From Candidatus Latescibacterota bacterium (GTDB lineage: Bacteria; Latescibacterota; Latescibacteria; Latescibacterales; Latescibacteraceae), in contig JBHPFF010000001.1 of NCBI GenBank assembly GCA_042572165.1, positions 10,770 through 74,769 of the forward strand: 64,000 nt of DNA. Reading direction: 5' to 3'. The notes under the pieces are model-generated. The model worked only from the letters and a program-made list of their open reading frames with translations. It was not told where the DNA came from and ran no database searches. Both the position numbers and the translations under genes were made by a program. Shown piece by piece: positions 9,797-28,936 of this stretch (position 1 is the stretch's first letter; every line of letters begins with the position of its first letter).

Positions 9797-10140
9797 TTAC
9801 GCTGTTAAAGGAAATTTGGAATTGGTTTTATTAAAATGGTAAAATTGATAAAGTATATCACGTTATCTTAATATATCTCAGTTTGTGTCAGCAATGGTGG
9901 GAAATAGATGAAAAGGTGTGAAATGTGAACATTGAACAATTTTTTGTAATTGCAGAGACCATGCTGTTTTAGTTGATTTTTAATAAGTTACAAAAGTTAA
10001 ATAAAGCATTGCGCACATGACTGGCAGTCAGGAGGTCACAGATTTGTATTATTATTAAATCAATCAATTAACTAAATTGTATATTGACAAGATAATAGTC
10101 CGGAATTTACGTGCCAGTAATGAAAAAATTGAAAGAAAAA

Positions 10141-10177
10141 ACCATCGAAATTTAATCAGAACTCGATGGTTTTTTTA
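10141..10177. terminator. intrinsic-terminator-like hairpin flanked by an A-run and a T-run (could act bidirectionally)
   Basis: aaaaaACCATCGAaatttaatcagaacTCGATGGTttttttt: a perfect 8-bp stem followed by T7 on the plus strand, with A6 on the other side. Confidence 0.5.
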
Positions 10178-10255: not shown

Positions 10256-10290
10256 TGGTGGAGGCGGCGGGAATCGAACCCGCGTCTTTT
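10256..10290 (-). other. orphan tRNA 3'-end fragment (T-arm + acceptor 3' strand + CCA); no 5' half present
   Basis: The minus strand reads GACGCGGGTTCGATTCCCGCCGCCTCCACCA. This gives T-stem GCGGG/CCCGC, loop TTCGATT, acceptor CGCCTCC, discriminator A and CCA. The upstream sequence is AT-rich and cannot form D or anticodon arms. Confidence 0.6.
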
Positions 10291-10439: not shown

Positions 10440-10940
10440 TTTGTGGATCGTCAATCAAGTGTCAGTCACAGAGATAAATCGTTACCTCCATATAAAAGCC
10501 CAACAAAAGCGAAGAGTGGACCTGTTTTCCCTCTTGCAAGTCTCATGCAGGTACGCTCATTCAATTGTCCTCCCCTCAATACTATCTCCTGCTCAATCTC
10601 TGTTGTTAAGACTTCCTTGCCCTTTGAAACAAAAGGGCTAATATAGCGGTCACACCATCTACATTCAGAAGCACATCGGTGGCATCGCATAAGAGCAGAT
10701 CACCAATAAGGACTGCATTCAATCTTACAGAGAGTCGGTTGCCCACGTCAGATCAAGCCGTTGTCGATTACATCGTCATGGCAGAGGTTTGCGGTATGAA
10801 CCAATTCAGTTGCTATACACGCACTCACCAATTTCTCGATATTCGCATATACCATATAACATTCTGCCAATCGAGTAGCCAGAAAGGTGCACAACATTTT
10901 ACCTGGTATAAGAAGATCCCGGATTAATTTCACATCCATA
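10440..10940 (-). pseudogene. polyprenyl synthetase pseudogene (paralog of 17511..18392; frameshifted and 3'-truncated)
   Basis: Two out-of-frame minus-strand ORFs, 10748..10939 and 10466..10690. The first reads PGKMLCTFLATRLAE...ELVHTANLCHDDVIDNG. The second reads EIEQEIVLRGGQLNERTCMRLARGKTGPLFAFVGL. Together they align with residues ~40-190 of the intact synthase at 17511..18392. The second DDxxD half is missing. Confidence 0.8.
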
Positions 10941-11023
10941 ATGAAGATATAACTTTATCGGTTCTCGCTAAAAGAAAATATCTTACCAGTGGGATGAATT
11001 CATCTGATGTTATTTTTTTGTCA

Positions 11024-11644
11024 TTATAATGCAACAGCCAGATTATTTTTAACATAAACATCCTCATAAATAGCAAGCACTTTTCTTACAGCAAAACACA
11101 CACAATCGCAGGATATGGTTGCACCGGAGACTTTACGGATGTCTCTTTTAATCCCTTTTCCACTCTTTACGCTGATATGATCTGAACTTCCCTTACCGAA
11201 AAATTGTTTAAGGAAATTATTACGCGCTATCGGCTTTCCGCGTTTTTCCTTTAACTCCGTAACGGCTAAGTTGTTAACTTTTCCTGTGGTTGTGTCAATT
11301 GCAATAATAAATATAACAGGGCCCCATTTACCGGGTTGTTCCTCCATTAGTGCCATGCGTACTGGCTTACCATCTTTAATTCCAACCAAAAAGTCATACG
11401 TGGTGACATCAGCAACAGCTTCTGATTCAGAGCCTTTTTGGAAGTGAACAAGGTGACCGCCCATTCTTTCTTTAATAACGGCAATTTCAGCATCGGTCAA
11501 TGTGTGATTTATTGTTTTTATCTCATCGACGTCAGGGAACATCTCTTTAAGAGCCTGCTCTTTCGTTAAGAGCGTAATAGCAAAGACGTTCGAGCAAAAA
11601 AGCAAGCCCATTATTGCTAAAATTAATAGTTTTGTTTTTTTCAT
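11024..11644 (-). CDS. secreted FMN-binding domain protein (FMN_bind, RnfG/NqrC/PplA-like flavinylation motif)
   Basis: Probable start MKKTKLLILAIMGLLFCSNVFA (signal peptide). The ORF as listed extends to 11719 and overlaps apbE. Motif KVSGATIS is a flavinylation site of the (S/T)GAT type. Confidence 0.75.
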   Translation of the reverse strand: MKKTKLLILAIMGLLFCSNVFAITLLTKEQALKEMFPDVDEIKTINHTLTDAEIAVIKERMGGHLVHFQKGSESEAVADVTTYDFLVGIKDGKPVRMALMEEQPGKWGPVIFIIAIDTTTGKVNNLAVTELKEKRGKPIARNNFLKQFFGKGSSDHISVKSGKGIKRDIRKVSGATISCDCVCFAVRKVLAIYEDVYVKNNLAVAL

Positions 11645-11663
11645 TTTACAGTTTCTCCTTTTT

Positions 11664-12659
11664 TTAATTATTATTGTTGTCAACGTGCATTCCTTTAGAA
11701 TAAACTCTTTCCTCGTCATCGGTTATCAGAAAAACTTCAATAGAGTGAAGTTTTTTTAGAATTTCGAGGGTTTTTTCTTTGCCAAGGACAAAAAAAGCGG
11801 TTGCCCAGGCATCTGCCAATACCGGATCAGGCGAAATAACAGTAACGCTTGCAAGGCCCTCAGCAGGAAATCCTGTTTCGGGATTGAGAATATGATGATA
11901 TTTTTTCCCATCCTCCTCGAAAACTCTCTCATAATCTCCAGAAGTAACTACGGCCATATCCGTAAGTTCTAGAGAACCTATTACTCCTTCACCTCGTGGA
12001 TTCCTAATGCCGATTACCCATGGTTTATTATTATACGCCCCAAGTGCATAAATGTCACCACCGCCATCTATCAACGCTGAAGTAATTCCGGATTGTTCAA
12101 GTACCCGTTTGGCCTCGTTGAGTGCGTAGCCTTTAGCAATAGATCCCAAATCAATTTTTGTAGTTGCTTTCTTTTTTTTAAGTTCTCCTTTCTCTATAAA
12201 AATATTTTCATAACCAATAGATTTTAAAGTATTATCTAAATCTTCTTTGTTTGGTACCTTTGGGGATTCGTCGAAAAAGCCCCAAAGTGTGATTAAAGGG
12301 AAAACGGTTATATCAAAATTCCCATCGCTCTTTATGCTGACGTCAAGAGCCTTTTGAACAAGTTCGACAATTTCACAGTCGGTACTAGGACTATCATCGG
12401 CATTAAACTTATGAACAGGGCTTTCGGGATTCAAAGCATTGAACTTTATATCAATTTCCTCAATCCTCTCAAAAGCCTTTTCAATGCCTTTTAGAACATC
12501 AATGTCTCCTGGTACCTGAATTGTGAAGAAGGTATCCATCAAAAAACGAGTCTGAGACTGAATATTATCAGGATCTTCTTTTAAAAATATCCATAAGATT
12601 AAAACAAGTACGATAATGCCGACAGTAAAACTAACAGCCCAAAATCTCTTTCTTAACAT
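11664..12659 (-). CDS. apbE: FAD:protein FMN transferase ApbE
   Basis: N-terminal TM anchor. Motifs FLMDTFFTIQV, SALIDGGGDIYALG and SGDYERVFEEDGKKYHHILNP are typical of the ApbE family. 331 aa. Confidence 0.85.
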   Translation of the reverse strand: MLRKRFWAVSFTVGIIVLVLILWIFLKEDPDNIQSQTRFLMDTFFTIQVPGDIDVLKGIEKAFERIEEIDIKFNALNPESPVHKFNADDSPSTDCEIVELVQKALDVSIKSDGNFDITVFPLITLWGFFDESPKVPNKEDLDNTLKSIGYENIFIEKGELKKKKATTKIDLGSIAKGYALNEAKRVLEQSGITSALIDGGGDIYALGAYNNKPWVIGIRNPRGEGVIGSLELTDMAVVTSGDYERVFEEDGKKYHHILNPETGFPAEGLASVTVISPDPVLADAWATAFFVLGKEKTLEILKKLHSIEVFLITDDEERVYSKGMHVDNNNN

Positions 12660-12687
12660 CTTTTAAATCTAAAAAAACATGGTGGCA

Positions 12688-13791
12688 TTAGAATGTCGAC
12701 CTCCAGCCGGCTGTTAAACGGTTGAATTTCAATGTCTCGTCACCAGAAGCTCCCCATTGTCGCCAATCAGCGATGTCATACTGTATCTGTATCATAGAAC
12801 CTGATGCAATATTGATTATAAGTCCCGGAGAAATAGTAACATATTCCTCTTCACCCGGGTTGGTTGTGATAAAACCATTGAAATTATGCAATGCATAATC
12901 GTAATGAAGCATTGCTTTTCCCCACCAGGAAAAGTCCCAGAGGAGCTTTGCATAATATCCGAAAGGTGTAGCATCTTCAAGTGTACTTGCGGCAATACTA
13001 TTTTCCCAGTTACCACCTGCAACCTCGGCACGAGCGGCGAAATTACCCCATACATACCCAGCACCAGCTGAATATCGGGTCATATTATATTTCCCGTCAT
13101 CGTCCCATTTCCCTCTCGCTAAAGATCCCTGGAACCTGAAAGCGCCGATCTCCGGTTCGACATGAATCATTGCAGTAGGTGAATTATTATTATCGTTGTA
13201 CAGATTTTTTTGTCCGCCTTTTCCGCCATTCAAAAGATAAATATAGGTTGGTAATGAGAGGAATGGGAGTTCAAGCGGTTTGTAAAGCTCGATACCGGTT
13301 TCATGCATAGCTCCAAGAAAATTATTTATGGAGAATTTGCCACCGTTTGTCTCTTCCTCCCAGAAAAGCTCGGCTCCGTAATCCCATGTAAACTGTGGCT
13401 TGAGAATACCAATAGACATTTCAATATCATAGGGCATCATCACCGTAAAAACAGCTCTTCTGAATTCATCGAACTTAGGGCTGATATTAGAGCCTTTTGT
13501 GTTTCCCAGGTCTGTCCCAAATCGGGGTGTTGCACCTGTTTTGGCATTGAACATAGGTTGAAGCTCAACTGATATTCTATCTGAAATCTCAGATGATATA
13601 TAGATAATTGTCTCTGTGAAAGCCATGCCGGCAGACTCATGACCTTTAATTCCGTTCATCTTTCCATCTTTATAATCAAACAAGGTCAGTTTGACGTGGG
13701 CACCTGTCGTTAATCCCTGTGCCGAAACCTGAGTGACTATCAAAATGAGAAACATGCAGAAAGTCATAAACAACAATAATTTTCTTAACAT
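12688..13791 (-). CDS. hypothetical outer-membrane beta-barrel (porin-like) protein
   Basis: Signal peptide ending VSAQG. Alternating amphipathic segments. C-terminal ...AGWRSTF, the aromatic terminal residue expected of OM barrels. No named family. Confidence 0.5.
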   Translation of the reverse strand: MLRKLLLFMTFCMFLILIVTQVSAQGLTTGAHVKLTLFDYKDGKMNGIKGHESAGMAFTETIIYISSEISDRISVELQPMFNAKTGATPRFGTDLGNTKGSNISPKFDEFRRAVFTVMMPYDIEMSIGILKPQFTWDYGAELFWEEETNGGKFSINNFLGAMHETGIELYKPLELPFLSLPTYIYLLNGGKGGQKNLYNDNNNSPTAMIHVEPEIGAFRFQGSLARGKWDDDGKYNMTRYSAGAGYVWGNFAARAEVAGGNWENSIAASTLEDATPFGYYAKLLWDFSWWGKAMLHYDYALHNFNGFITTNPGEEEYVTISPGLIINIASGSMIQIQYDIADWRQWGASGDETLKFNRLTAGWRSTF

Positions 13792-13890
13792 AGCAAATAA
13801 CTCCTTTTGTTTTTATCTTCTACCTGCATTGAAACTCTGCTGTGTTTTAAGACATTCCTGTTTTTAGAGACCTGTCTGTATCAATAGTTA

Positions 13891-14361
13891 CTAGGCCTTT
13901 CTCAGCCAGATATCATATAAATTGAGAAGCTGGATAATCAATAGCGTTATTGCAAGAGTGGAGCCTGCTATAACCAATACTGTTGCAAAAGCAGTTGATA
14001 CATACGGGATTAAATACATCAAACCGATATCTATAGGAATAAGAACGAAAGGAAAAACACCTAAGAAGCATTTGAGTTTATCACTAACACCGGTAAACAT
14101 AAGAACGGTTAGTGGTATTGCAAAACAAAAAATCCCGTAAAATGGCAAATAGATATGTGCATGCTCGGTCACTTCCATATATTCCATATAACCATATGAT
14201 TCCGCAATCAACGAAGGATTGAACTCAGTGCTTATATAGATTTGTATTGCAAAGACTATATAAACCAGACCGACAAAGCATAAAAGAGCTGTTATAAAAA
14301 GTTTTTTACATAAAGGTAATTCCGAAAGCTTAAAATCTTGCATTTTACTTCTCCTTAACAT
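13891..14361 (-). CDS. hypothetical integral membrane protein (~4 TM helices)
   Basis: Hydrophobic 156-aa ORF in operon position between the barrel protein and the small CxxCH protein. No recognisable motifs. Confidence 0.45.
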   Translation of the reverse strand: MLRRSKMQDFKLSELPLCKKLFITALLCFVGLVYIVFAIQIYISTEFNPSLIAESYGYMEYMEVTEHAHIYLPFYGIFCFAIPLTVLMFTGVSDKLKCFLGVFPFVLIPIDIGLMYLIPYVSTAFATVLVIAGSTLAITLLIIQLLNLYDIWLRKA

Positions 14362-14454
14362 GTGAAAATGAGGGGTTTATGTTTCTCTTTGCCCAATAAG
14401 CATCATTTTTGTAATGGGCCTATCTTTTAATCATTCGTAAACAGATCACTCGTG

Positions 14455-14871
14455 CTAATGACAGAGCATACAGGAATAATCGCCGTTTATATCGTACCCA
14501 TGAAAATCACTGTTAGTACCTATATTGACATCTGCATTGGTAACGCTAATATCTTTTGACCCATATCCCTTGTCTCCCGGAGTAACCGTATATGAGCCTG
14601 CACCGACATCACTAAAAACATAGGTTCCTGTTGCATCTGTAAGTGCGGACGCCTGGCTTTTACCAGTCAATTGAACAGTAAGACCTACTATGGGATTTCC
14701 TGAGCCATCAGTGAATTTACCGGTTATATTGTATGTTCCGCTGGCATCAACTCCTTTGTCATAATCATCATTTGCACTGAAAATACAGCTAACAACCGAT
14801 AAGATTAACAAAATGTGTAAAAGAACAAGAAATATTTTCAATTTGAACCCCCTTTCAAAAAAATGGTTCAT
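14455..14871 (-). CDS. small secreted (possibly lipo-)protein with Ig-like/CarbopepD_reg-like domain and C-terminal CxxCH
   Basis: Signal peptide with LSVVSC. GSGNPIVGLTVQLTGKSQASALTDATGTYVFSDVGAGSYTV resembles carboxypeptidase-regulatory-like beta-sandwich domains. The protein ends ...NGDYSCMLCH-stop (verified on DNA: tgt atg ctc tgt cat tag). Confidence 0.55.
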   Translation of the reverse strand: MNHFFERGFKLKIFLVLLHILLILSVVSCIFSANDDYDKGVDASGTYNITGKFTDGSGNPIVGLTVQLTGKSQASALTDATGTYVFSDVGAGSYTVTPGDKGYGSKDISVTNADVNIGTNSDFHGYDINGDYSCMLCH

Positions 14872-15044
14872 CTGTCCTGGTTCATCGTGAAATGGGATTT
14901 ACAGCTTCATAAATTAGTCACTAATAACGGGGATTTTCAATCCCTCTTGACATAAGATATTACTGTGGCTGTAAAAGCCAAGCCCTTAGGGTGCTTCGCA
15001 GCCTTGAAAGGTCGAGCTTGTTAATAGTTTTCTGGTCTCCTTTC

Positions 15045-15385
15045 TTTTAGCTTTTATTTCTTCACGAGCCTTTCCTGCTCGCGGTCAAGTCTCCGCTTTT
15101 GCCCATGAAGACGACCCCGCGTCTTTTGTTTCAGGCCATTCATGCCTTCTTGGCGATAGTTCCTTCACCACCGCACAACTGATGTACGGGATACCTCAAG
15201 AATCAATGCAACTTCAACTTGTTTCATGACCCGCCGTAGCATCCGTAAACAGCGACATCTGAGTTCGTATTGCGCTTCGCTACTTATCTTTCTTGCATCT
15301 CGTTTTTCCATACAATAAAGATAACAATTTTATCCTAATTATGCGATATATTTATTCGCCGGCTTAATAGTATCCAGCCGCCTAT
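15045..15385 (-). mobile_element. IS630-family element remnant (degraded 5' end, in-frame stop in transposase start)
   Basis: About 80-85% identical to 22232..22430. Shared strings include cctttcctgctcgcggtcaagtctccgcttttgc, tttcaggccattcatgccttct and cgccggcttaatagtat. The reading frame equivalent to MRWW... hits TGA after 3 codons. Confidence 0.55.
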
Positions 15386-15562
15386 ATGTATACTCCCCAT
15401 AAAACATATTTACTTCTGGATGTTGAGAATAAATTTCTTTTTATTATGTAAGAGTAAACTATTATTATTCCAAATTCACTCTCCATCTATATATCACTTC
15501 GAAAAAGAGAGACAGTTACATATCGTGGATAAGTCGGCATTATCGTCAGTTTTCAAAGCGAA

Positions 15563-15952
15563 TTAAGAGAGTATTTTTGATATCTTATTACTTAACAAAT
15601 CGAGATCCACAGGTTTCTCAAGGAAATCCTCAACTGGAAGCCAATATTCACTGCTATCGCTTGAACTGAATCCGAGTGGAAATTTCTCGTTTACAGCAGT
15701 CAGCAGCAAAATGGGAATATCTTTGAGTTTTTCGCAGGAATGTTTTATCCGACGGGCAAATTGAAATCCAGCTGAATTGTTTTCCGGAAACATAACATCC
15801 AGTATGATAAGATCAGGTCGTCGTTTATTCATGCTCTTTTCTGCGCTCTTTATGTCTAGTTCAATTTTTACTTCGTGACCGGTATCGCGTAATACAGTTG
15901 CTGCTGCAGTTGCGAAATCTTCATCATCATCAATAATCATGAGATAAGACAT
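15563..15952 (-). CDS. stand-alone response regulator receiver (CheY-like)
   Basis: MSYLMIIDDDEDF...PDLIILDVMFPE...: phospho-acceptor Asp context. 129 aa with no output domain. Confidence 0.8.
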   Translation of the reverse strand: MSYLMIIDDDEDFATAAATVLRDTGHEVKIELDIKSAEKSMNKRRPDLIILDVMFPENNSAGFQFARRIKHSCEKLKDIPILLLTAVNEKFPLGFSSSDSSEYWLPVEDFLEKPVDLDLLSNKISKILS

Positions 15953-17429
15953 TTTGCTTCTCCTTATTTTTATTCACATGTTTTATTGAAGATGGAAACA
16001 CTAATTCAAATTTTGTTCCTTCTTTAGGTATACTGGTAATTCGCACATTAATATGATGTACCTGAGCCACATTTTTAACTATGGCTAGCCCCAATCCCGT
16101 CGAATTTTTATTGTGACGTACGGCTTCGTCAGTCTTGTAATACTCATCAAATATTTTTGGGAGTTTATCGCCGGGGATGCCTATACCCCTGTCCTTGATA
16201 GTAATTACAGGACCTGTTTCTGTTGATGGTCTACAATATACACGCACTCGCCCCTTTTCATACGAATAGATGACTGCGTTGGAAATTAAATTTACTAAAA
16301 GCATCTTCATATGATCTTCAACAGCCACTACATATGCCTGTTCTAATTCCTTATCAAAAACGATCTTTCGTTTTTCCGCTAAGGGGAGAACTTGAACCAT
16401 ACACCATCTGATTATTTCAGCCAGATCAAGTTTTTTCCAGCAAAGCGTATCCTTCTTCACTGAATGTAAATTAACAAGCTGTAACATTTCTTGTATTTCC
16501 TGTCCAAGTTTTTTGCTTCTGTTGGAAATTCTTTCCAGAACTTTAAGAGCCTTGTCAGGAAAGACTCCGCAATATCCTTTAAGGAGTAATTGTATATTGG
16601 CGTCAATCGCAGCAAACGGGGATTTTAATTCGTGCGTAATGCGAAGAAGATGTCTTGTTTTTTCTCTCTGGATCTCTAAAAGACGTTTATTGGTTTTAAC
16701 CAGTTCAAATTCTCTCTCAAGAACCATTTTCGATAGATATGACGCAAGATACCAAACTATGAACCAAATTCCTAACGAAGACATAACATTAATAATGGTT
16801 ATAGTTACATTATTTTCAATTTGAATCCGCAAGCTTCTGTCGATATACATGCCAGCTGAGGGAATTATTCCGTATTTTTCAACACATACACATGCCACAT
16901 AGAGAATACCTGCTAAAATAGTTACAATAAGGCTTTGTTTGCTTGAGAAAAAAATACAGGCTAAAACAATATGGAAAAGATATGTAAACGGTATAAATGT
17001 CTCCAAACTTCCTGAATAATGGATAACACCGGTTAGGATTATCAGATCAATGATTACTTGAGCCCATATATTATTCATGATACTGTCGTAAGTTTCGGCT
17101 CTTTTCATCTGCATAATATGCTTCAGATATGCAATATTTATGATAATTAACATCCCTGCAGTAACAATAGCCCACGAAGTTTGAGGGTGAAGTCCAAAGA
17201 ATTGAATACTGTCGGGGAAAAATCCGAGTATTCCAAATATGGTTAATAGTCCAATCACAATCCAGCGCAAATGGCAAAACCACAACGCATATTTCATCAA
17301 TATGGGTAAAGGGAGTTGTGTAAATACTCTTTTTTGAGTATCTTTTTGAGACAAGTTCACTTCAGGTATTACCGATAATTCATAAACATTCATTTTTGTT
17401 TCAGCCTTTAATAACATTGAACATTCCAT
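15930..17429 (-). CDS. sensor histidine kinase with multi-TM N-terminal sensor region
   Basis: About 7 hydrophobic helices. H-box RITHELKSPFAAIDANIQLL. HATPase_c motifs (DRGIGIP, GLGLAIVKNV). Confidence 0.85.
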   Translation of the reverse strand: MECSMLLKAETKMNVYELSVIPEVNLSQKDTQKRVFTQLPLPILMKYALWFCHLRWIVIGLLTIFGILGFFPDSIQFFGLHPQTSWAIVTAGMLIIINIAYLKHIMQMKRAETYDSIMNNIWAQVIIDLIILTGVIHYSGSLETFIPFTYLFHIVLACIFFSSKQSLIVTILAGILYVACVCVEKYGIIPSAGMYIDRSLRIQIENNVTITIINVMSSLGIWFIVWYLASYLSKMVLEREFELVKTNKRLLEIQREKTRHLLRITHELKSPFAAIDANIQLLLKGYCGVFPDKALKVLERISNRSKKLGQEIQEMLQLVNLHSVKKDTLCWKKLDLAEIIRWCMVQVLPLAEKRKIVFDKELEQAYVVAVEDHMKMLLVNLISNAVIYSYEKGRVRVYCRPSTETGPVITIKDRGIGIPGDKLPKIFDEYYKTDEAVRHNKNSTGLGLAIVKNVAQVHHINVRITSIPKEGTKFELVFPSSIKHVNKNKEKQNVLSHDY

Positions 17430-17510
17430 ATATTTAGAGTATAGTATTCGATAATCCTATTATGGATGTTCTTTATCATTAAAAAATTTTCTGTTTCTCG
17501 TCGGTAAAAT

Positions 17511-18392
17511 TTAACATAATACTTTTATTTCTAAGTTATTACGGTCGAAAGACCATTGGAGATCACTTTTAATAAACTCTTTAAGGCCTTTACGGTTCCG
17601 GGGCCATTCGTTGAGACAATCAAGAGCAGAAATGCATAGCTCCACTATTTTTTTATTAATTCTTTGTGGTGTCTCCATAGACTGTGGAAGTGTGAATTTC
17701 CCGCGCCGCAGGTCACTTCCAAGGGTTTTACCGTAACGTTGTTCATCACCGATAATATCGATAAGATCATCGGCGAGTTGATATGCAGTGCCGATAAGGT
17801 ATCCTGACTCCTCAAGGGCTGCTGAGAGAGCGCTATTGTCACCCCCGCAGACTAATCCAACAAAAGCGAAAAGCGGTCCGGTTTTCCCACGACTAAGCCT
17901 CATGCAGGTGGTTTCATCCAATTGTCTTCTTCGCAAAACCAACTCTTGCTCGATCTCTGCCTGGCAGACCTCTCTGACTTTTGTTATGAAAATTTCTGTA
18001 TAACGACCCTTCTGAGTTTTCTGAATCATATCCATCGCCTCGCACAAAAGCAGGTCGCCTGTCAGAACAGCCTGCGAAGGGTTTGTGGCTTTCCAAAACG
18101 TTTGGACTCCCCTTCTTATCTGGCCATTGTCAATAACATCGTCATGCAACAAGCTTGCAGTATGAACCAGTTCGACCGCTGCACATGCCCTCACCAGCGT
18201 TTCACTGTTGACAGATATCTTATCATACGATGCCAGTCGATCAGCCAGACGTGTGCGCAGCATTTTACCTGGCATAAGAGATTCTCGAGTAATTTCACAA
18301 CCAAAAGAGTAAATTACTTTTTCGGTCCGTGTCAAAAGAAAATCTCTAACCAGTGAAACGAATTCATTTAATGATGTTATTTTAGCTGTCAT
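17511..18392 (-). CDS. polyprenyl diphosphate synthase (trans-isoprenyl diphosphate synthase)
   Basis: First DDxxD motif LLHDDVIDNGQIRRG and second motif YQLADDLIDIIGD. Also GKMLRTRL and the RGKTGPLF region. 293 aa. Confidence 0.85.
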   Translation of the reverse strand: MTAKITSLNEFVSLVRDFLLTRTEKVIYSFGCEITRESLMPGKMLRTRLADRLASYDKISVNSETLVRACAAVELVHTASLLHDDVIDNGQIRRGVQTFWKATNPSQAVLTGDLLLCEAMDMIQKTQKGRYTEIFITKVREVCQAEIEQELVLRRRQLDETTCMRLSRGKTGPLFAFVGLVCGGDNSALSAALEESGYLIGTAYQLADDLIDIIGDEQRYGKTLGSDLRRGKFTLPQSMETPQRINKKIVELCISALDCLNEWPRNRKGLKEFIKSDLQWSFDRNNLEIKVLC

Positions 18393-18419
18393 TTTTCTGT
18401 TAAATTAAGTTTCATGTTG

Positions 18420-18890
18420 ACAAACACGTTATCATAAAGAGCAAACACTTTTTTCACTGCAAAACAAGCACAATCGGAAGATATAGTTGCCCCGCTGATG
18501 GCGCGGATATCTTTACTAATTCCTTCCCCACTTTTTACGCTGATAGGATCTGAACTCACTTTGCCAAAAAACTGTTTTAAAAAAATTCTGATGTGCTATC
18601 GGACGACCTAGTTTCTCTTTATAAGACATTACAGCTAAATTAATAAAGTTTCCCTGTATTTGCATCTATATGCTATGATAAATTCAACCGGTCCCCATTT
18701 CCCCGGGTGTTCCTCGATAATTGCCATTCGGACTACCATGTTGTTTTTCATGCCAATGTAAAAATCATATGCAGTCGTTTCGGCGACATTTTCAGATTGT
18801 GATCCTTTCTGGTAATGAACAAGGGAACCGCCCAATCTTTCTTTAATGTTTGCGATTTCCTAATCCGTCAAAATATGATTTGTGTTTTTC
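18420..18890 (-). pseudogene. FMN-binding protein pseudogene (paralog of 11024..11644; premature stop, N-terminus replaced by IS fragment)
   Basis: Nucleotide and protein homology to the intact copy (MGGSLVHYQKGSQSENVAETTAYDFYIGMKN...EEHPGKWGPVEFII). An in-frame TAG replaces the Ala codon in ...ILTD*EIANIKERLGG. The signal-peptide region is absent. Confidence 0.75.
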
Positions 18891-19323
18891 ACTTCTTATC
18901 TGTTGTCGCACAATCGATAGTTTCGAGATACGCTCGTCCCATGTTTTTTCCGTCTGTTTCAAAAGCGGCGGCAACCAGAGACTTGTCCTCAACACCGCGA
19001 CCACGCTTGCCCGGGCGACGACCTCCGACAAAGGTTTCGTCAACCTCCACCTCGCTGGTAAGAGGGAACATCTGTGATGAGGCCCTAATTGACCGGATTT
19101 TATGTAACAGGAGCCATGCCGTCTGGTAGGATCGTATGTCGAATTTACGTTTCAATTCCATAGCGAACATATCTTTCTTCGATGTAGCAACCAGATAGAC
19201 CGACCAGGAAAGCGTCAAAAGTGGATGACGCAGGCGATGAAAAACTGTTCCGGCAGTAACAGACGTTTGATGTCGGCACGCCGTGCATTGAAAACGGCGT
19301 TGTTTTTCAATGAAATATGCCAT
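18889..19323 (-). pseudogene. IS1595-family (ISXO2-like) transposase, N-terminal 144-aa fragment only
   Basis: Zn-ribbon FQCTACRHQTSVTAGTVFHRLRHPL. Helix region YQTAWLLLHKIRS. The start of the DDE domain, EVEVDETFVGGRRPGKRGRG, typical of IS1595 transposases. The ORF then stops and abuts the FMN-bind pseudogene. Confidence 0.65.
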
Positions 19324-19528: not shown

Positions 19529-20809
19529 TTAGTTTATTTTTTCATCGATAAAAAGTTCTTTAATAGACTCAACAAGCCGGTCTCGCACTTCTCCCGATTC
19601 GGAAGTTCTCATTGTGATAGTAGGATTGTGAAGGATTTTTCTCACAATACGGCGGGTTACAAGATTAATAGCCTCATAGGTTTCAGCACTCACTCTATTG
19701 TTGATTATTTTGAGTTCTTCCAGACGAATATTTTCGCATTTTTTGCGAAGATTATTGATTACTGGAATAACCTCGCGCTCCTCAAGCCATGTGCAGTAAT
19801 CATCAATCTTTTCCCCGATAATTTCTTTTGCCTTCACGGCCTCGGTTTTTCTTCGATCACGGTTTCCCACTGTCACATCCTCGAGATTATCAATGTTAAA
19901 TAAATGAGTGTTTTTTATTTCAGCCACATCAGGTTCAATATTCCTCGGAACACCAAGATCGATAAGGACAAGTGGATTCCCATTACGATGTTTGATATTC
20001 TTAATCAGAAGATTTTTTGTAATTAACGGAAGCCTTGAAGCAGCGGAGGTGATAATTATATCCACGTTGTCGAATATTTCAGCCATACTCTCAAATGGTA
20101 TGATTTTCCCTGACAATTCTTCAGCCAATTCATTTGCGCGTTCGGATGTTCTGTTTGTTATGTAGAGTTCTTTAATACCGTTATCAACCAGTTGTTTTGC
20201 ACATATTTTCCCGATTTTGCCGGCTCCGACCAGAAGAACTTTCCGTTTTTCGAGCCCGCCAAAAATCTTTTTCCCTAACAAAACTGCTGCTGAACTGACA
20301 GAAACGATACCTTCGCTGATTGAAGTTTTGTTTCTTATCAGCTTTCCAACCTGAAATGCCTGATGGAAAAGCCGGTTAAGAACCGAACCTGTGCATCCGG
20401 TTTCACAGGCTTTAGCATATGAATATTTTATCTGTCCGAATATTTGCGTTTCACCCAGTATCATTGACTCAAGACCGCTTGTTACATTAAAGAGATGTTC
20501 TATAACCTTATTCCCTGTATAGAAGAAAAAGTGCCTGAGAAAAGCTTCCTCCATACCCGATACCTCGAGGATGTAGCGATTTATTTCCTCACGTACTTCA
20601 TCAGGCGGTTTGCAGATAAATGCATAAATTTCCGTACGGTTGCAGGTCGAAACAACCACGCATTCGCGTATACCGTTTAAATTATGGATCTCTTTCAGTG
20701 CCGCAGAGATACTTTCTTTGTTGAACGAAAACCTTTCGCGAATTTCAACCGGTGCGGTTTTATATGAAATCCCTATAAGGATAAAGTTTTCTTTGCGCAA
20801 TCTAACCAT
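19529..20809 (-). CDS. hemA: glutamyl-tRNA reductase
   Basis: N-terminus ILIGISYKTAPVEIRERFSF, active-site region VVSTCNRTEIY and NADPH-binding VLLVGAGKIGKICAKQL. 426 aa. Confidence 0.9.
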   Translation of the reverse strand: MVRLRKENFILIGISYKTAPVEIRERFSFNKESISAALKEIHNLNGIRECVVVSTCNRTEIYAFICKPPDEVREEINRYILEVSGMEEAFLRHFFFYTGNKVIEHLFNVTSGLESMILGETQIFGQIKYSYAKACETGCTGSVLNRLFHQAFQVGKLIRNKTSISEGIVSVSSAAVLLGKKIFGGLEKRKVLLVGAGKIGKICAKQLVDNGIKELYITNRTSERANELAEELSGKIIPFESMAEIFDNVDIIITSAASRLPLITKNLLIKNIKHRNGNPLVLIDLGVPRNIEPDVAEIKNTHLFNIDNLEDVTVGNRDRRKTEAVKAKEIIGEKIDDYCTWLEEREVIPVINNLRKKCENIRLEELKIINNRVSAETYEAINLVTRRIVRKILHNPTITMRTSESGEVRDRLVESIKELFIDEKIN

Positions 20810-20978: not shown

Positions 20979-22004
20979 TTATTTAAGCGATTCAATGGAG
21001 TTCGTCAGCAACGCTTTCACATATTTAGGATTGTGAACTCCATCGCTCCTGTCCTCCAAACACATCTGGTAATTCATCCTTGCACCAGCAACGTCTGAAG
21101 AATAGGTTCCGGTGACAGCACTGCCGCCTTCTTCTGTCATTATACCTGCTGTAATGAGTAGTGCCGCAAGTTCTGAAAGCAACTCCTCGACTTCCGTTTG
21201 AGCATCATTTAAATCAAACGACTCGAGATCAGCATGACACGACACGCAGCCTGCTACATTAGGTTCAATTGTACCATGATAATCATACCCCGTCTTCATG
21301 GTATGTCCGCCGGCCTGAACACCGTACGGTGTCGCCATGTGGCAGGTCGGGCAGCCATCGGTTATCATGGTCGTATGCGCTGAATTCGTATACGACTCAG
21401 GGCCGCTGACTTCGTAAGCGCCGAAACCGGCCAGAATATTACCCTGCGGGCCGTGATGTGCCCCGAAGCGTGATGAAGTTACTTCATAATCACCACCGCC
21501 TACCGCAAGCGTGTAACCATAATCTCTCGCCTGATGACAGGTAGCACAAAGACTGCCCTTGCCAAAGTCTACGGTTGTTGAAGCACCCATCATACTGCTT
21601 ACCATGTCAATAGAACCAGTAACAACCACGTCATAATCTGTCTCGTCATAATTAGTATGGATGTTATGGCAGGTACGGCAATTGGGTTGCGTAGGATTCA
21701 CGATACCTGTAACTTCTTTACCGGCAACGTGCTGCCTGAATCCTTCACTTGTATGACATAGAGCACAACTCGCTGATCCACCTCGTTCAGAATTGCCAGC
21801 TGTTGCATGAGTCGATGCCTGATATTGGCTCTGTCTGGCAAGAAGTTCAGTAGAAACGCTGTGACAGGTTCCACATAAGCCCGTTCCATCGGCGCCATCT
21901 TCTCCTGTCGGTCCTTGCTCTCCTTCACATCCGAGAAACAATGAAACGACACAAACCAGGAAAACCCAGGCGAACACAATTGAGATAGCTTTTGTTTTTT
22001 TCAT
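20979..22004 (-). CDS. hexaheme c-type cytochrome lipoprotein
   Basis: Signal peptide with lipobox LFLGC. Six CxxCH motifs (CGTCH, CALCH, CRTCH, CATCH, CPTCH, CVSCH). 341 aa. Confidence 0.85.
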   Translation of the reverse strand: MKKTKAISIVFAWVFLVCVVSLFLGCEGEQGPTGEDGADGTGLCGTCHSVSTELLARQSQYQASTHATAGNSERGGSASCALCHTSEGFRQHVAGKEVTGIVNPTQPNCRTCHNIHTNYDETDYDVVVTGSIDMVSSMMGASTTVDFGKGSLCATCHQARDYGYTLAVGGGDYEVTSSRFGAHHGPQGNILAGFGAYEVSGPESYTNSAHTTMITDGCPTCHMATPYGVQAGGHTMKTGYDYHGTIEPNVAGCVSCHADLESFDLNDAQTEVEELLSELAALLITAGIMTEEGGSAVTGTYSSDVAGARMNYQMCLEDRSDGVHNPKYVKALLTNSIESLK

Positions 22005-22110
22005 TAGCTTCCCCTTTCGTTAAAAGATTAATAAAATTGAGACAGTTTTTGTTTTTTTCAATAGTTTCCCCTTACATTTAAAGATTGAACTAAATTTTTT
22101 ATGAACGTTT

Positions 22111-22430
22111 TTATGCAGGAAAATTGTGTGCCATTGTTCTAATAGGAAGTTTCACATCGTAATGCTGCACAATCGCTTCCTGAACGGCTTTCCGTGTCCT
22201 CAGTGCAAACGGTAGTTTCAAATGATCGGGCGTTTTATCCACGAGCATATGCTGAATACTCCTTTCCTGCTCGCGGTCAAGTCTCCGCTTTTGCACATGA
22301 CGACGACCCCGCTTCTTTACTTTCAGGCCATTCATGCCTTCTCGACGATAGCTTATCCACCAACGCACTACTGATGTGCGGGATACCTAAATTATGCTAC
22401 ATATTTACTCGCCGGCTTAATAGTATTTCT
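22111..22430 (-). mobile_element. IS630-family element 5' fragment (transposase N-terminal HTH ~85 codons, rest deleted)
   Basis: The ORF 22111..22368 contains ...DKTPDHLKLPFALRTRKAVQEAI, the conserved N-terminal motif of IS630 transposases. Its flanks match the copy at 15045..15385, including cgccggcttaatagtat. Confidence 0.6.
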
Positions 22431-22516
22431 TTATGGACAAGATATAACTTTGGGTGAAAAATATTCAGCCAAAATACATATCTAACACTTTAGTATTTAT
22501 TAAGTAATGAGTCACA

Positions 22517-22533
22517 TTGTGAAAATATTCACA
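22517..22533. promoter_or_regulatory. Rex operator-like palindrome TTGTGAAAATATTCACA
   Basis: Matches the Rex consensus TTGTGAA-N4-TTCACAA at 16 of 18 positions. Lies between the GlcD-like gene and the IS630 fragment, upstream (minus-strand sense) of the cytochrome/hemA genes. Confidence 0.5.
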
Positions 22534-22948
22534 TGCAAAGATATATAAATACTTACTGGTTTCGACTATTTTCGGAAAAATATATGTTGTGTGGTCACTC
22601 AAGTCAAGACATTATTTACTTTTTTTCATTCAAATAATGCGTCCCCGATAAAACATTATTAATTATTAGTATGTCGATTATATATGTGATATTATGCTTC
22701 AAAACTTATATTATGGAAAAAGAAGGACCCCCACTTTAATTTCCCCCTAACAGGGGGGATACCGAAGGCAGGGGGATTCAAAAAGTACTCATTGTGATAA
22801 AAAAATGCAACTTGTTTAATTGCCGGAATAATAGTTCTCATCCGGAAATTGCCAATTTTGAGGCATGAAAGATACGAAATCCATTTTGCGAAAGTGGTGC
22901 AGATAAAGACCATGTTCGCTTTCTGATTCAAAGTCTACCTAAGTCGTT

Positions 22949-25092: not shown

Positions 25093-25114
25093 GGTAGAGA
25101 ATTTGATAAGGAAT

Positions 25115-25786
25115 ATGAAAAAGATTGCGGAAGCAACTATTGTTAGGTTATCAATTTACAACCGCACTCTTCATAAGCTGGAAAGAGAAGGAGTGGAAAT
25201 TATTTCCTCATTTGAAATGGGGGATAAAATTGGGTTTAGTGCAGCTCAGATACGAAAGGATTTGTCCTTTTTTGGTGATTTTGGTGAGACAGGAAAAGGT
25301 TATTATGTGAGGGATTTAATAAATGCTATTTCACGAATCTTAGGAGTTGATAGGAAGTGGGATGTGGTATTAGTAGGTGCAGGTAATTTGGGGGCGGCTT
25401 TGTTTTATTATCCAGAATTTGGAGACCGGGGATTTAATATTGTAGTTGTTTTTGATAATGATCTTCGCAAGATTGGAAAGAGATTGGAGAATATTGTTAT
25501 ACAGGATATATCTGAATTACCTAAAACAGTTAAGGAACTTAACATAAGAATTGGGATTATTACTGTACCCGCACAAGTTTCTCAAGGGATTGCTAATTTG
25601 CTTACCTCTTCCGGGGTAAGGGCAATCTTAAACTTTGCTCCGTCCGTGATTACTGTTCCCGAAGGTATGGAACTACGCAATGTCGGCCCTTGCACGAAAT
25701 TAGAAAGTCTCACTTACTTCTTAACCAATGATGCAAAGGTGAGGACTGATGTTTTTATGAAAACAGAGAATAGCAGCGGATATTGA
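25115..25786 (+). CDS. rex: redox-sensing transcriptional repressor Rex
   Basis: N-terminal winged helix (RLSIYNRTLHKLEREG...SSFEMGDKIGFSAAQIRKDLSFFG). Rossmann fold VVLVGAGNLGAAL. 224 aa. Only 11 bp separate it from the rnfC-like gene. Confidence 0.9.
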   Translation: MKKIAEATIVRLSIYNRTLHKLEREGVEIISSFEMGDKIGFSAAQIRKDLSFFGDFGETGKGYYVRDLINAISRILGVDRKWDVVLVGAGNLGAALFYYPEFGDRGFNIVVVFDNDLRKIGKRLENIVIQDISELPKTVKELNIRIGIITVPAQVSQGIANLLTSSGVRAILNFAPSVITVPEGMELRNVGPCTKLESLTYFLTNDAKVRTDVFMKTENSSGY

Positions 25787-25797
25787 GGATATAGTAT

Positions 25798-27192
25798 ATG
25801 GGAATTTTTACTAAAACGAAATTTCAGGGCGGATATAAATTCAAAAACTTTGAAGGCGCAGCCAAACCGGTTTTGCATGAAATGCCCGTGCCTGAAAAAA
25901 TTGATATCCCCCTTTCAGATATTTTTTCGGATACTTTTGTACTTGCAGTCAGAGAGGGCGATACACTGCGTGCCGGGGATAGAATCATCAAATCGAACAA
26001 CGATTCAAAAGTTTCGCTTATTTCTCCTGTCAACGGTACTGTTTCAAAAGTCAACTCAGATAGAATTATTATTGCATCCGATGGGTCTTCAAATATTAAC
26101 CCTTTAAATGGCCATAAAGAAAACCCCTGGCATTTGGACCGTTCTGAAGTTTTCGATATTTTCTGTGAAACAGGATGCTCATTATTGTGCAGCAACCAAT
26201 TTACTTCAGTAAGCGACTGCGATAAAATCAAATATATTATTATTAATGCGGTTCATAACTCTCCCTTGAACCAGTCATGGATGCCTGATATAATCGGAAA
26301 CAGCGTTATTTTTTCACATGGTCTGAGAACCGTGAACGCATTATTCCCCGAGGCAGAAACAGTTATTGCGATAAACAACAGGAACAGAAAGTACTTTGAT
26401 GCTCCCGAAATAAAAGAGCATGCAAAAATCAAAATCATGTCGGACCGTTATCCCCAGGAACATCCCGAACTTCTTTCGAGGGATACGGTGAATAGAGGGC
26501 TCGTTTCCACGGATGGTGAAAGTGATGATTCAATCCTTATAATGCACTTTTCCGATGTTGTTCACATTGCCGAAGTCATGACACAGGGACGCCCCTTAGT
26601 TGACAGGATTCTTATGATCGCCGGTCCCGGAGTTTCCGAACCCGGGTGGTACCGCGTTCGAATTGGAACGACCCTTGAAGAAATAAAAAAGCAGCTTTTA
26701 AAAAGCGATATTAATAGCCCCTGGAGAATAATAAGGGGGAATCCGCTTTTAGGCGAAGGATTACAATCGCTTGATACATCAATTCTGCCTTCCGACAGTG
26801 AAATATCAGTAATCCGCGAACATGCGACCAGGGAATTATTCAGTTTCATGCGGCCAGGATTCGCTGCTGACAGCTATACAAAATTCACTGTTGCGGAACT
26901 TATTCCTCTGTTTACCAAGAAGCTTGAAACAAATCTTCATGGCGGTGTTCGCCCTTGCGTACAGTGCAATTACTGCGATCAAGTCTGTCCGGTAGATATA
27001 TATCCTTTTCTGATATGGAAGCATGTAAAGGTGAATGAGATTGAGGAGAGTTTCCGGTTCAGGCCTTATAAATGTATTGAATGTGGGTTGTGCGATTATG
27101 TATGTCCATCAAAGATTGATATTTTACAATCAGTTATAAATGCCAAAGATGAGTATCGGAAGCTGAGGAGTGCTGATGAACTTTCTGATTGA
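25798..27192 (+). CDS. rnfC: RnfC-like subunit (C-terminal 2x[4Fe-4S]; canonical NADH/FMN-binding glycine motifs not recognisable)
   Basis: RnfC N-terminal barrel-sandwich region (VREGDTLRAGDRIIKSN...VNGTVSKV). C-terminal CVQCNYCDQVCP and CIECGLCDYVCP. No GGAGFP-type motif can be found in the middle domain. Confidence 0.7.
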   Translation: MGIFTKTKFQGGYKFKNFEGAAKPVLHEMPVPEKIDIPLSDIFSDTFVLAVREGDTLRAGDRIIKSNNDSKVSLISPVNGTVSKVNSDRIIIASDGSSNINPLNGHKENPWHLDRSEVFDIFCETGCSLLCSNQFTSVSDCDKIKYIIINAVHNSPLNQSWMPDIIGNSVIFSHGLRTVNALFPEAETVIAINNRNRKYFDAPEIKEHAKIKIMSDRYPQEHPELLSRDTVNRGLVSTDGESDDSILIMHFSDVVHIAEVMTQGRPLVDRILMIAGPGVSEPGWYRVRIGTTLEEIKKQLLKSDINSPWRIIRGNPLLGEGLQSLDTSILPSDSEISVIREHATRELFSFMRPGFAADSYTKFTVAELIPLFTKKLETNLHGGVRPCVQCNYCDQVCPVDIYPFLIWKHVKVNEIEESFRFRPYKCIECGLCDYVCPSKIDILQSVINAKDEYRKLRSADELSD

Positions 27193-28258
27193 TCGTTTCA
27201 GGGAAATAATCGAATACTATGACGAGAAGTTTGAACACACAAAGTTCAGACCCGCAATGGATACCGTGTCAACATTCTTTTTCTCCCTCAAAACGGTTAC
27301 ACCGCTTTCAGGTCCTCATATCAGGGATAGTTCAGATCTTAAACGTTACATGTTACCTGTAATGTTTGCTGCCGCACCGACAGTGTTGGCATCCATTTAC
27401 TTTTTCGGATGGCGATCTCTTGCTGTCCTGATTTTGAGTTATGTTGTCGGGATTTTCATTGAACTTGGCTTTGCGATACACAATAATGATGAAGTAACTG
27501 AAGGTATGTTTGTCACCTGCATGCTCTACCCCATGATACTACCACCGACAATACCGTTCTGGATGGCTGCTGTCGGCATAGCGGTGGGCATTATCATTGG
27601 TAAAGAAGTATTTGGAGGAACAGGTAAAAACATATTTAATCCGGCAATTGTCGGGAGAGTATTCCTCGCGGTCACATTTCCCGTTGAAATGGCATCGAAA
27701 TGGGTTACGCCGTACAACGGACTTATGGGAGGACTCGTACACTGGGGGAAATCCGGAGATGCGGTGACTGCTGCATCACCTCTTATCGATTTCAAAGGCG
27801 GTGAGACGGCAGCCAGATTATTTGACATGTTTATTGGAAATACGAGCGGTTCACTGGGAGAAACCTCAGCAATTCTCATTATTCTTGGCGGTATATTTCT
27901 TATTTTTACACGGGTCAGTAACTGGCGACTTCCGCTTTCAACCATACTGTCCGCTATAATATTAGCAGCAATTATGAATGCTGCAAATCCCGAAGAATTT
28001 GCTTCGCCACTCTATCATCTGGCCGGTGGAGGCCTTCTTTTCGGAGCGTTTTTCATGGTCACCGATCCTGTCACAAGCCCGTTCACTAATATCGGAAAAT
28101 GGATTTACGGGATATTGATTGGCATCATAATCATTGTTATTAGGAATATGTCGGGTTATCCAGAAGGTACGATGTTTGCCATATTGCTTATGAATATATT
28201 TTCACCTATAATCGATGATGCCGTTTTGGCGTTTAAATTCAGAAAGGCAGGTGAATGA
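27170..28258 (+). CDS. rnfD: Rnf complex subunit D (NqrB family)
   Basis: Polytopic membrane protein. FNPAIVGRVFL. C-terminal FMVTDPVTSPFT, the FMN-attachment Thr region conserved in RnfD/NqrB. Confidence 0.85.
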   Translation: MLMNFLIDRFREIIEYYDEKFEHTKFRPAMDTVSTFFFSLKTVTPLSGPHIRDSSDLKRYMLPVMFAAAPTVLASIYFFGWRSLAVLILSYVVGIFIELGFAIHNNDEVTEGMFVTCMLYPMILPPTIPFWMAAVGIAVGIIIGKEVFGGTGKNIFNPAIVGRVFLAVTFPVEMASKWVTPYNGLMGGLVHWGKSGDAVTAASPLIDFKGGETAARLFDMFIGNTSGSLGETSAILIILGGIFLIFTRVSNWRLPLSTILSAIILAAIMNAANPEEFASPLYHLAGGGLLFGAFFMVTDPVTSPFTNIGKWIYGILIGIIIIVIRNMSGYPEGTMFAILLMNIFSPIIDDAVLAFKFRKAGE

Positions 28259-28833: not shown

Positions 28834-28936
28834 ATTGCAGAGTTACAGAGTGGCAGGGTGAAAATAAGAGGGACAGAGCATAAGGTATAAAGTAGAAGTA
28901 AAGACTTGCATTTTGAATTAAAACACGGAATTTAAC

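Follow-up and report, generated by a model that had tools for sequence, protein, structure and literature searches.

We analyzed a 64,000-nucleotide (nt) stretch of DNA from a Candidatus Latescibacterota bacterium (contig JBHPFF010000001.1, positions 10,770 to 74,769 of the forward strand; hereafter, the window), in which a gene for an FMN_bind protein (FMN, flavin mononucleotide), followed by a gene for a polyprenyl diphosphate synthase, is found twice, with one gene of each pair being ruined. Our results suggest that the window probably contains two incomplete versions of one conserved ten-gene locus, which come from different lineages, A and B, and are truncated in a complementary manner, the B half having been acquired. 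The anatomy of the region, the lineage of every gene, the lesions, and the signatures of selection are observed directly, and the presence of two complementary broken copies of the pair is confirmed. The sequence is a contig of a metagenome-assembled genome (MAG), and all genes discussed lie on its minus strand. Relatives used for comparison are contigs designated by L numbers, including L002 (GCA_018656855.1), L003 (SDBT01030934.1), L005 (GCA_042564075.1), and L055 (SDBU01107287.1); A-type loci are those of L001, L002, and L005, and B-type loci are those of L003 and L004. Copy 1 of the pair spans about 10445..11644 and copy 2 spans 17511..18895, as follows:

11024..11644, minus strand: intact gene for a secreted FMN_bind protein (Pfam PF04205), copy 1, B lineage; amino acid (aa) identity 72% to A type and 88% to B type
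about 10445..11024, minus strand: polyprenyl synthase pseudogene, copy 1, B′ lineage; delimited by tblastn and alignment to L055
18389..18895, minus strand: FMN_bind pseudogene, copy 2, A lineage; 84.5% nt identity to A-type L001; delimited by tblastn, alignment to L001, and reading of the junction
17511..18392, minus strand: intact gene for a polyprenyl diphosphate synthase (Pfam PF00348, E = 1.2e-41), copy 2, A lineage; aa identity 77% to A type (L001) and 60% to B type

The copies are located ~7.37 kb apart and are collinear, with a start-to-start offset of 7364 to 7371 nt. A repeat search yielded four ungapped collinear blocks of 71 to 74% identity between 10743..11518 and 18109..18889. 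The mean column identity in a MAFFT alignment of both copies was 74%, and global gene-by-gene alignment gave nt identities of 69% for the FMN genes and 67% for the synthase genes. The identity at the DNA level is thus about 67 to 74%, lower than the 75 to 80% of the original prediction made for this region; at the protein level, the copies share 60% (synthase) and 66% (FMN) of residues. When the intact synthase (17511..18392) was used as a tblastn query, the second copy was recovered at 10454..10948 with internal stops (E = 1e-37); with the intact FMN_bind protein (11024..11644), it was recovered at 18407..18895, interrupted by stops and shifts of frame (E = 2e-51). The predicted existence of two significantly similar copies in the same orientation, with one functional gene of each kind retained and the other one a pseudogene, is therefore borne out. 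The alignment also revealed where the similarity ends: at the deletion junction of a truncated IS1595 element (IS, insertion sequence) at 18895 and at the truncated synthase remnant at ~10455. These positions are not common ends of a duplicated unit, and the flanking genes extend the A and B loci in opposite directions.

Nor are the copies each other's closest relatives. Each of them is more similar to sequences from other organisms (77 to 91% identity) than to its partner in the window (60 to 66% aa identity); the foreign sequences reach 77 to 88% at the aa level and 91% at the nt level, compared to 60 and 66% aa identity within the window. In neighbor-joining trees, the synthase remnant clustered with L055 and the intact synthase with L001, L005, and L047 (bootstrap of 100 in both cases), while the intact FMN_bind gene fell into the B clade with L003 and L055 (98) and the FMN remnant grouped with L001, L046, and L047 (77). 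Since each copy has bootstrap-supported closer relatives elsewhere, the two can hardly be products of duplication within the genome. The old segmental duplication of a two-gene unit proposed in the original prediction is therefore not upheld (bootstrap 98 to 100), and its secondary option, acquisition of a second copy, fits the evidence.

In relatives, the pair lies within a longer locus, present once, with the order cytochrome c, hemA, CXXCH lipoprotein, four-transmembrane (4-TM) protein, porin-like barrel, ApbE (in some loci), FMN_bind, synthase, kinase, and regulator. The single-copy locus is seen in L001 to L005, and the order from cytochrome and hemA to the regulator is also followed in L048 and L054. 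The cytochrome gene is located upstream of hemA in L005, L048, L054, and L123, as it is in the window. A-type loci lack ApbE, and their FMN and synthase genes overlap; B-type loci contain ApbE. L055 has a B-like FMN gene (83% identical to that of the window) that overlaps an intact synthase gene. Wherever a contig reaches far enough, hemA is the gene immediately preceding the locus, be it of A or B type.

In the window, the minus-strand order is an IS630-like remnant, cytochrome, hemA, IS1595 fragment, FMN remnant, synthase, kinase, and regulator, followed by a further IS630-like remnant, lipoprotein, 4-TM protein, porin, ApbE, FMN_bind, synthase remnant, and a fragment of transfer-messenger RNA (tmRNA). 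Apart from the FMN_bind and synthase genes listed above, the locus is represented by the following genes:

20979..22004, minus strand: multiheme cytochrome c, first gene of the locus, resident A side (Pfam MtrC/MtrF domain II/IV family, Cytochrome_C7)
19529..20809, minus strand: hemA (glutamyl-tRNA reductase), anchor of the resident locus; 87% aa and 89% nt identity to A type (L002), 72% aa to B type (L003)
15930..17429, minus strand: histidine kinase, A lineage (Pfam HATPase_c, HisKA, 6TM_PilS); 77% aa to A type (L001), 61% to B type (L003)
15563..15952, minus strand: single-domain response regulator, A lineage (Pfam Response_reg); 84% aa to A type (L001), 65% to B type (L003)
14455..14871, minus strand: lipoprotein of the CarboxypepD_reg fold, B lineage (Pfam PF13620); 60% aa to A type, 70% to B type (L003), 82% to L123
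13891..14361, minus strand: four-TM membrane protein, Aq_1264_TM family, B lineage (homologues annotated PF27139); 55% aa to A type, 86% to B type (L003)
12688..13791, minus strand: outer-membrane barrel of the porin fold, B lineage (AF2 model and Foldseek search); 70% aa to A type, 97% aa and nt to B type (L003)
11664..12659, minus strand: ApbE, flavin adenine dinucleotide (FAD):protein FMN transferase, B lineage (Pfam PF02424, E = 7.8e-86); absent from L001, L002, and L005, 91% aa to B type (L003)

When all proteins of the locus were used as tblastn queries against the window, each family matched a single place, except for FMN_bind and the synthase, with one intact gene and one pseudogene each; ApbE, for example, gave a single match, making the gene at 11664..12659 the sole one. 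Counted within the window, each of the ten genes is present intact once and only once. The complementary decay that had been predicted for the pair thus extends to the whole locus.

The B segment of the window (14861..11046) is 90.5% identical to L003 over 3822 nt. With respect to this same contig, the porin is 97% identical and hemA is 72% identical, a contrast that fits an acquired B half. A comparison with relatives had been called for to decide which copy is ancestral. It placed the copies in the separate A and B lineages, and since the hemA and cytochrome genes of the window belong to the A lineage, we regard the A version as resident and the B half as acquired. Both GC content and GC content at third codon positions (GC3) are alike in the two halves and do not discriminate between them.

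The lesions in the FMN remnant were scored against L001, to which it is 84.5 to 85% identical at the nt level. The stop of the truncated IS1595 open reading frame (ORF) is immediately followed by codon ~42 of the remnant, the first ~41 codons, including those of the signal peptide, being lost. The lost 5′ end and an in-frame TAG (18862..18860) had been noted earlier; that list was incomplete, as there are also +1 insertions at about 18670, 18648, and 18585. The three insertions jointly restore the frame, and the C-terminal half translates into a well-conserved sequence that includes SGATIS. Its differences at codon positions 1, 2, and 3 number 20, 15, and 40 and are thus third-position rich, and the ratio of synonymous to nonsynonymous differences is 31:33. 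This pattern is indistinguishable from that of intact A-lineage genes (p = 1.0 and 0.79), and because the substitutions resemble those in intact genes, the FMN pseudogene looks recently inactivated. The IS1595 fragment that abuts the remnant occupies the expected place of the resident lipoprotein, 4-TM, and porin genes and the 5′ part of FMN_bind. It scores 77.9 bits against NCBIfam NF033547 (cut-off of 75) over profile positions 3 to 117 of 215 only and is therefore a truncated member of the family.

The lesions in the synthase remnant were scored against the synthase of L055, its closest intact relative (91% nt and 84% aa identity, compared to 60% aa identity to the partner in the window). 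Copy 1 had been described as an intact FMN gene next to a truncated, frameshifted synthase gene, which is correct, with a lone frameshift at about 10700, which is not. Five frameshifting indels were found (−1 nt at 11017, +1 at 10942, +1 at 10914, −11 nt at 10721, and +2 at 10655), together with two or three premature stops, including CGA>TGA at 10750..10748 and TCA>TGA at 10468..10466. Homology collapses after about 10455. The 3′ third with the second DDxxD motif is gone, the first DDxxD motif is kept, and the kinase and regulator expected to follow are absent there. Codon-position (1/2/3) differences of the remnant from L055 are 17/12/21 and its synonymous:nonsynonymous ratio is 11:30; for the adjacent intact FMN gene, the same comparison gives 11/11/46 and 35:23 (p = 0.008 and p = 0.001 for the difference between the two). 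The substitution pattern indicates that the synthase pseudogene is under relaxed selection and has been drifting for some time. Its identity of ~66% at the nt level to A, B, and the window partner alike had pointed to an old pseudogene, a reading that was dropped once L055 showed 91% identity. Judging from these comparisons, the remnant represents a third sub-lineage and is moderately old.

The junctions of the two halves are all marked by debris of mobile elements, namely, the IS1595 fragment, two IS630-like remnants, and an orphan tmRNA end:

about 22100..22430, minus strand: second IS630-like remnant, between the cytochrome gene and its conserved upstream region
18889..19323, minus strand: IS1595-family transposase fragment, N-terminal ~140 aa only (NCBIfam NF033547; Pfam DDE_Tnp_IS1595)
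15069..15373, minus strand: IS630-like transposase remnant at the joint between the A and B halves (label from reading of the translation)
10256..10286, minus strand: orphan 3′-terminal 31 nt of tmRNA, comprising the T-arm, acceptor strand, and CCA (cmscan RF00023, E = 1.5e-7)

The two IS630-like remnants are in direct orientation and are 88.5% identical over 131 nt and 92% identical over 37 nt. They bracket the segment that contains the cytochrome, hemA, the IS1595 fragment, the FMN remnant, the synthase, the kinase, and the regulator. The noncoding stretch that precedes the cytochrome gene (22458..22640) shares 81% identity with L123:3540-3714, and the two cytochrome proteins are only 45% identical; this stretch may be a conserved regulatory region parted from the cytochrome gene by the IS630-like remnant. 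The tmRNA fragment is located ~165 nt beyond the end of the synthase remnant, and a terminator-like hairpin is present at 10132..10175. The tmRNA fragment scores 23.7 bits against a threshold of 47, with only the last ~31 nt confidently aligned, and so does not represent a whole tmRNA; given its G3:U70 acceptor pairing, it could alternatively be a 3′ end of the tRNA-Ala type. ARAGORN predicted no tmRNA gene in the window, and a search of the window for a second copy of the 31-mer returned none. Scars had been predicted at both pseudogene ends. This is accurate for the IS1595 fragment at copy 2; the supposed tRNA fragment at copy 1 is the tmRNA 3′ end, located at some distance. The vicinity of the B half was searched for traces of an additional hemA, cytochrome, kinase, or regulator gene, and none was found.

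These observations can be arranged into the following scenario. A resident A locus would have occupied the usual hemA-adjacent site. A deletion ending inside an IS1595 copy would have removed its genes from the lipoprotein gene through codon ~41 of FMN_bind, and the FMN_bind stump would afterward have gained a stop codon and three 1-nt insertions, the A synthase, kinase, and regulator genes staying intact. The B version, which begins about 30 to 55 nt upstream of its own lipoprotein gene and is located directly downstream of the A regulator, past the IS630-like remnant, would have kept the genes for the lipoprotein, 4-TM protein, porin, ApbE, and FMN_bind, while its synthase gene decayed and was truncated and its kinase and regulator genes were lost. 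The duplicated FMN_bind/synthase pair would thus be the overlap zone of two truncated loci. With two copies of a gene present, either one would have been dispensable, and the outcome would be a permuted hybrid locus. Because A and B loci are each found at one and the same position, next to hemA, in the genomes to which they belong, we infer that the B half would have arrived by horizontal transfer or recombination from a B-lineage member of the Latescibacterota.

The architecture of related loci was assessed in 35 genomes and 80 metagenome contigs, which represent more than 10 phyla. The part retained among them is the core porin-ApbE-FMN_bind, often with the 4-TM protein; a synthase gene directly after FMN_bind is found only in the Latescibacterota-like loci closest to the window. 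In L123 (456-9111) and L124, a synthase-kinase-regulator module is located ~950 nt upstream of a cytochrome-hemA-lipoprotein-4TM-porin-ApbE module. The ORF upstream of the L123 synthase is not FMN_bind, and the synthase, kinase, and regulator of L123 are of a third, more distant type (52 to 58% identity to all others). In L008, L009, L059, and L067, kinase-regulator-synthase genes precede 4TM-porin-ApbE-FMN genes. Several copies per genome do occur outside the Latescibacterota: Desulfobacterales MAG BS2bin.18 (JAZFSW01) has two separate loci with this FMN_bind family (L023 and L031). ApbE or FMN_bind is split over two to three frames at L038:2365-3462, L040:1690-2294, L044:3-730, and L051:17-673; these may be further pseudogenes of the locus or errors of metagenome assembly.

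Loss of the synthase is seen in several other loci. The B′-type synthase of L041 (1183-1460) is also a pseudogene, with two large deletions and other lesions. None of the lesions compared is common to the remnants of L041 and the window, indicating that the two synthases decayed independently. An IS3-like element occupies the synthase position in L042 (2578-3599), and in L048, L049, and L051, FMN_bind is directly followed by the kinase. Since the synthase is decayed in the window and in L041, replaced by an IS element in L042, and absent from L048, L049, and L051, its loss in related loci is recurrent, and it looks like the most expendable member of the locus. This fits its decay in copy 1 after a second copy became available.

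Four other explanations of the window were considered. That sequencing or assembly errors created the stops and frameshifts, with both copies being intact, is the least credible of them: of the three +1 insertions found in the FMN remnant, one does fall into a T7 run, but the synthase remnant has five indels (including −11 and +2), two to three stops, a lost 3′ third, and a relaxed-selection pattern; the FMN remnant has neither a start codon nor a signal peptide and borders on a truncated transposase; and long intact ORFs fill the rest of the window. Duplication of the FMN_bind/synthase segment within the genome followed by reciprocal decay, the main reading of the original prediction, would account for collinear same-strand copies 7.37 kb apart with one intact gene each. 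It has become very improbable, since far closer relatives of both copies exist in other organisms with bootstraps of 98 to 100, the flanking genes share the two lineages of the copies, and in relatives the pair is embedded in one larger locus. We also consider it improbable, if to a lesser degree, that the contig is an assembly chimera that joins two populations at the IS630-like repeat, the complementarity being coincidental. The source is a MAG contig, the joint coincides with a repeated IS remnant, and populations of both types co-occur in metagenomes, as illustrated by L004 and L041, which are from one sample. Yet with an identity of only 88%, the IS remnants in the window do not constitute a repeat that an assembler would collapse within the contig, and composition is uniform across the joint. 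It would also be a striking coincidence for two organisms to each lack exactly the half kept by the other, and the pseudogenes would stay real regardless.

The remaining alternative, unlikely but less so than the other three, is that A and B are ancient paralogues, perhaps originally in tandem, which were differentially lost in descendants with no need for horizontal transfer. The window would then represent an intermediate of tandem duplication and random loss, a process that also permutes gene order. Consistent with this idea, L123 and L124 have adjacent permuted modules, the kinase-regulator-synthase genes lie upstream of 4TM-porin-ApbE-FMN in four contigs, two loci coexist in one Desulfobacterales MAG, and GC and GC3 are similar in both halves. 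On the other hand, location directly after hemA makes the A and B loci look like positional orthologues, no contig with two complete Latescibacterota loci was found, and the synthase, kinase, and regulator of L123 are of the third, distant type. The 97% identity of the porin to L003, compared to 72% for hemA, would moreover demand that hemA had paralogues too.

Several points weigh against complementary truncation of two loci with acquisition of the B half, which we nevertheless prefer. The nt identity to L003 runs from 76% (lipoprotein) to 97% (porin) along 4 kb, and it is L055, not L003, to which the synthase remnant corresponds; the B half is therefore a mosaic in its own right, and a single clean transfer is too simple. 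The permuted modules of L123 and L124 show that the order of genes varies naturally, so the order in the window may partly reflect an older arrangement. The linkage of the halves across the IS630-like remnant is putative, being that of a MAG contig. No integrase, complete mobile element, or ssrA gene was found in the window, and neither an integrase nor a complete element flanks the B half. Additional copies may be present elsewhere in the genome, beyond the window.

The features of the intact proteins are consistent with a role in the cell envelope. The FMN_bind protein of copy 1 scores 33 bits against PF04205 (cut-off of 22), has an N-terminal hydrophobic signal with AxA, and carries an SGATIS flavinylation motif that is invariant in alignment A2; its gene lies immediately downstream of ApbE. 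It is 100% identical to P0001, a protein of a Candidatus Latescibacterota MAG, and 88 and 83% identical to its homologues in L003 and L055, respectively. On these grounds, it is a predicted flavinylated substrate of ApbE of the FMN_bind class. The intact synthase of copy 2 scores 143 bits against PF00348 (cut-off of 27) and contains both DDxxD motifs (DDVID and DDLID) in its translation, as expected for a trans-isoprenyl synthase. The start codon of its gene overlaps the stop codon of the FMN remnant (ATGA). The NCBIfam search reached no equivalog cut-off for this protein. The lipoprotein has a C-terminal CXXCH that is invariant in seven of seven homologues and is probably a monoheme cytochrome. 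The 4-TM protein (150 aa in relatives) has conserved histidines (TEHAHxYLP).

The barrel protein is 366 aa long in the loci of relatives. Its AF2 model (pLDDT of 87.5, pTM of 0.81) has 16 strands, and a Foldseek search with this model returned PorB, Omp32, OmpF, and OprP (E = 7e-12 to 1e-8, or 7e-12 to 1e-9 for PorB, Omp32, and OprP; TM-scores of about 0.55 to 0.68), so that the model conforms to the general porin fold, a 16-stranded outer-membrane barrel. Pfam and NCBIfam contain no family that matches the porin or 4-TM proteins of the window; some homologues of the porin carry Pfam Porin_O_P. A profile search against the sequences in PDB gave only marginal matches to OprO/OprP (E = 0.08), and the fold was settled by the structure search. 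A nearly invariant [S/T]GA[S/T]P motif is present in a loop (TGATP at residues 84 to 88; alignments A3 and A4), and the protein ends with a C-terminal GWRxTF. There is no Pfam match to DUF3570 (PF12094) even at E ≤ 10, and the protein has one conserved motif, not two; it is thus not a DUF3570 protein.

ApbE attaches FMN to the threonine of an [S/T]GA[S/T] motif in exported proteins (Meheust et al. 2021, PMC8238504). In the locus, it would covalently attach FMN to the SGAT threonine of the secreted FMN_bind protein and possibly also to TGAT of the porin, which may thus be a second ApbE substrate, a flavinylated outer-membrane porin. The pathway would be fed by a membrane quinone whose isoprenoid chain comes from the synthase, and it would be under the control of the kinase and regulator. 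The hybrid set of A and B genes would still work as a unit. From its gene content, the locus looks like an envelope electron-transfer module under two-component control. We tentatively suggest, as a speculative possibility, that it is an undescribed trans-envelope electron conduit of diderms, in which a porin covalently flavinylated by ApbE at [S/T]GA[S/T]P acts with a flavinylated FMN_bind protein of the periplasm, the CXXCH lipoprotein, the His-rich 4-TM protein, and a dedicated quinone-tail synthase. If so, the window would show that halves from lineages 35 to 40% apart are interchangeable in vivo. The core of 4-TM protein, porin, ApbE, and FMN_bind is found in more than 10 phyla, and no description of this ApbE-centered cluster was found in the papers searched. 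Elsewhere in the window, a gene for a Rex-like regulator is followed by an RnfC-D-G-E-A operon (25103..30139, plus strand; the Rnf operon proper is 25798..30139 and has its own RnfG). RnfD and RnfG also need ApbE, and the sole ApbE of the window is that of the B half.

The locus can be compared to several known systems. Like the extracytosolic flavinylation clusters (PMC8238504), it has ApbE next to a secreted FMN_bind protein with [S/T]GA[S/T] and colocated cytochromes, and its additional motif-bearing protein parallels DUF3570 and DUF2271 as substrates of ApbE. None of the five transmembrane modules described for those clusters (NapH-like, MsrQ-like, PepSY-like, DsbD, and NQR/RNF-like) is present in the window locus; the partners here are instead a porin-fold barrel without a Pfam family, an Aq_1264-type 4-TM protein, the CXXCH lipoprotein, a synthase, and a two-component system. 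The FMN_bind protein shares its fold family and the flavinylated threonine motif with RnfG/NqrC, but it scores 52 bits against the NCBIfam cut-off of 205 and has no adjacent Rnf/Nqr partners, and it is thus not an RnfG/NqrC protein. As in IS-adjacent deletions, a truncated IS1595 lies exactly at the deletion of the 5′ half; in contrast to them, the end point of the deletion is internal to the IS and not at its terminus. The orphan tmRNA 3′ end resembles the repeat left by ssrA integrators among the tmRNA/tRNA-targeted integrative elements; the window contains no integrase, second repeat, or ssrA.

The flavin-based extracellular electron transfer locus of Listeria, attributed to Light et al. 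2018, is said to comprise fmnB/ApbE, pplA, dmkA, dmkB, ndh2, eetA, and eetB. ApbE and a secreted FMN_bind protein likewise occur in the window locus, together with a polyprenyl diphosphate synthase of its own (a DmkB-like role). In contrast to the Listeria locus, Pfam scans of every locus ORF revealed no UbiA-type prenyltransferase, Ndh2, or EetA/EetB, with ApbE, FMN_bind, and polyprenyl_synt being the only members of the Listeria set recovered, the organism is a diderm, and an outer-membrane porin and c-type cytochromes are part of the locus. It therefore does not belong to the Listeria type. The wide distribution of this uncharacterized ApbE-centered locus, with a porin that bears a flavinylation-type motif, calls for attention.

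Acquisition or duplication followed by complementary decay is a known, ordinary process, of which the window is an unusually tidy instance. As in reciprocal gene loss generally, there are two homologous copies, each gene survives once (by tblastn, intact in exactly one copy within the window), and the redundant copies persist as pseudogenes that have decayed to different degrees. Here, however, the copies come from lineages 35 to 40% apart in protein sequence and were not duplicated in the genome, and the losses are contiguous blocks, the 5′ half in one version and the 3′ half in the other, removed by IS-element deletions rather than scattered, with a permuted hybrid as the result. For annotation, this is a warning that an apparently duplicated pair may be formed by the ends of larger loci that have been truncated. 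That the hybrid survives is an argument for cooperation across lineages between two modules, lipoprotein/4-TM/porin/ApbE/FMN_bind and synthase/kinase/regulator, and the window would offer a clean snapshot of a gene cluster rebuilt from two divergent versions via complementary IS deletions, with pseudogene stumps at the overlap and a permuted gene order.

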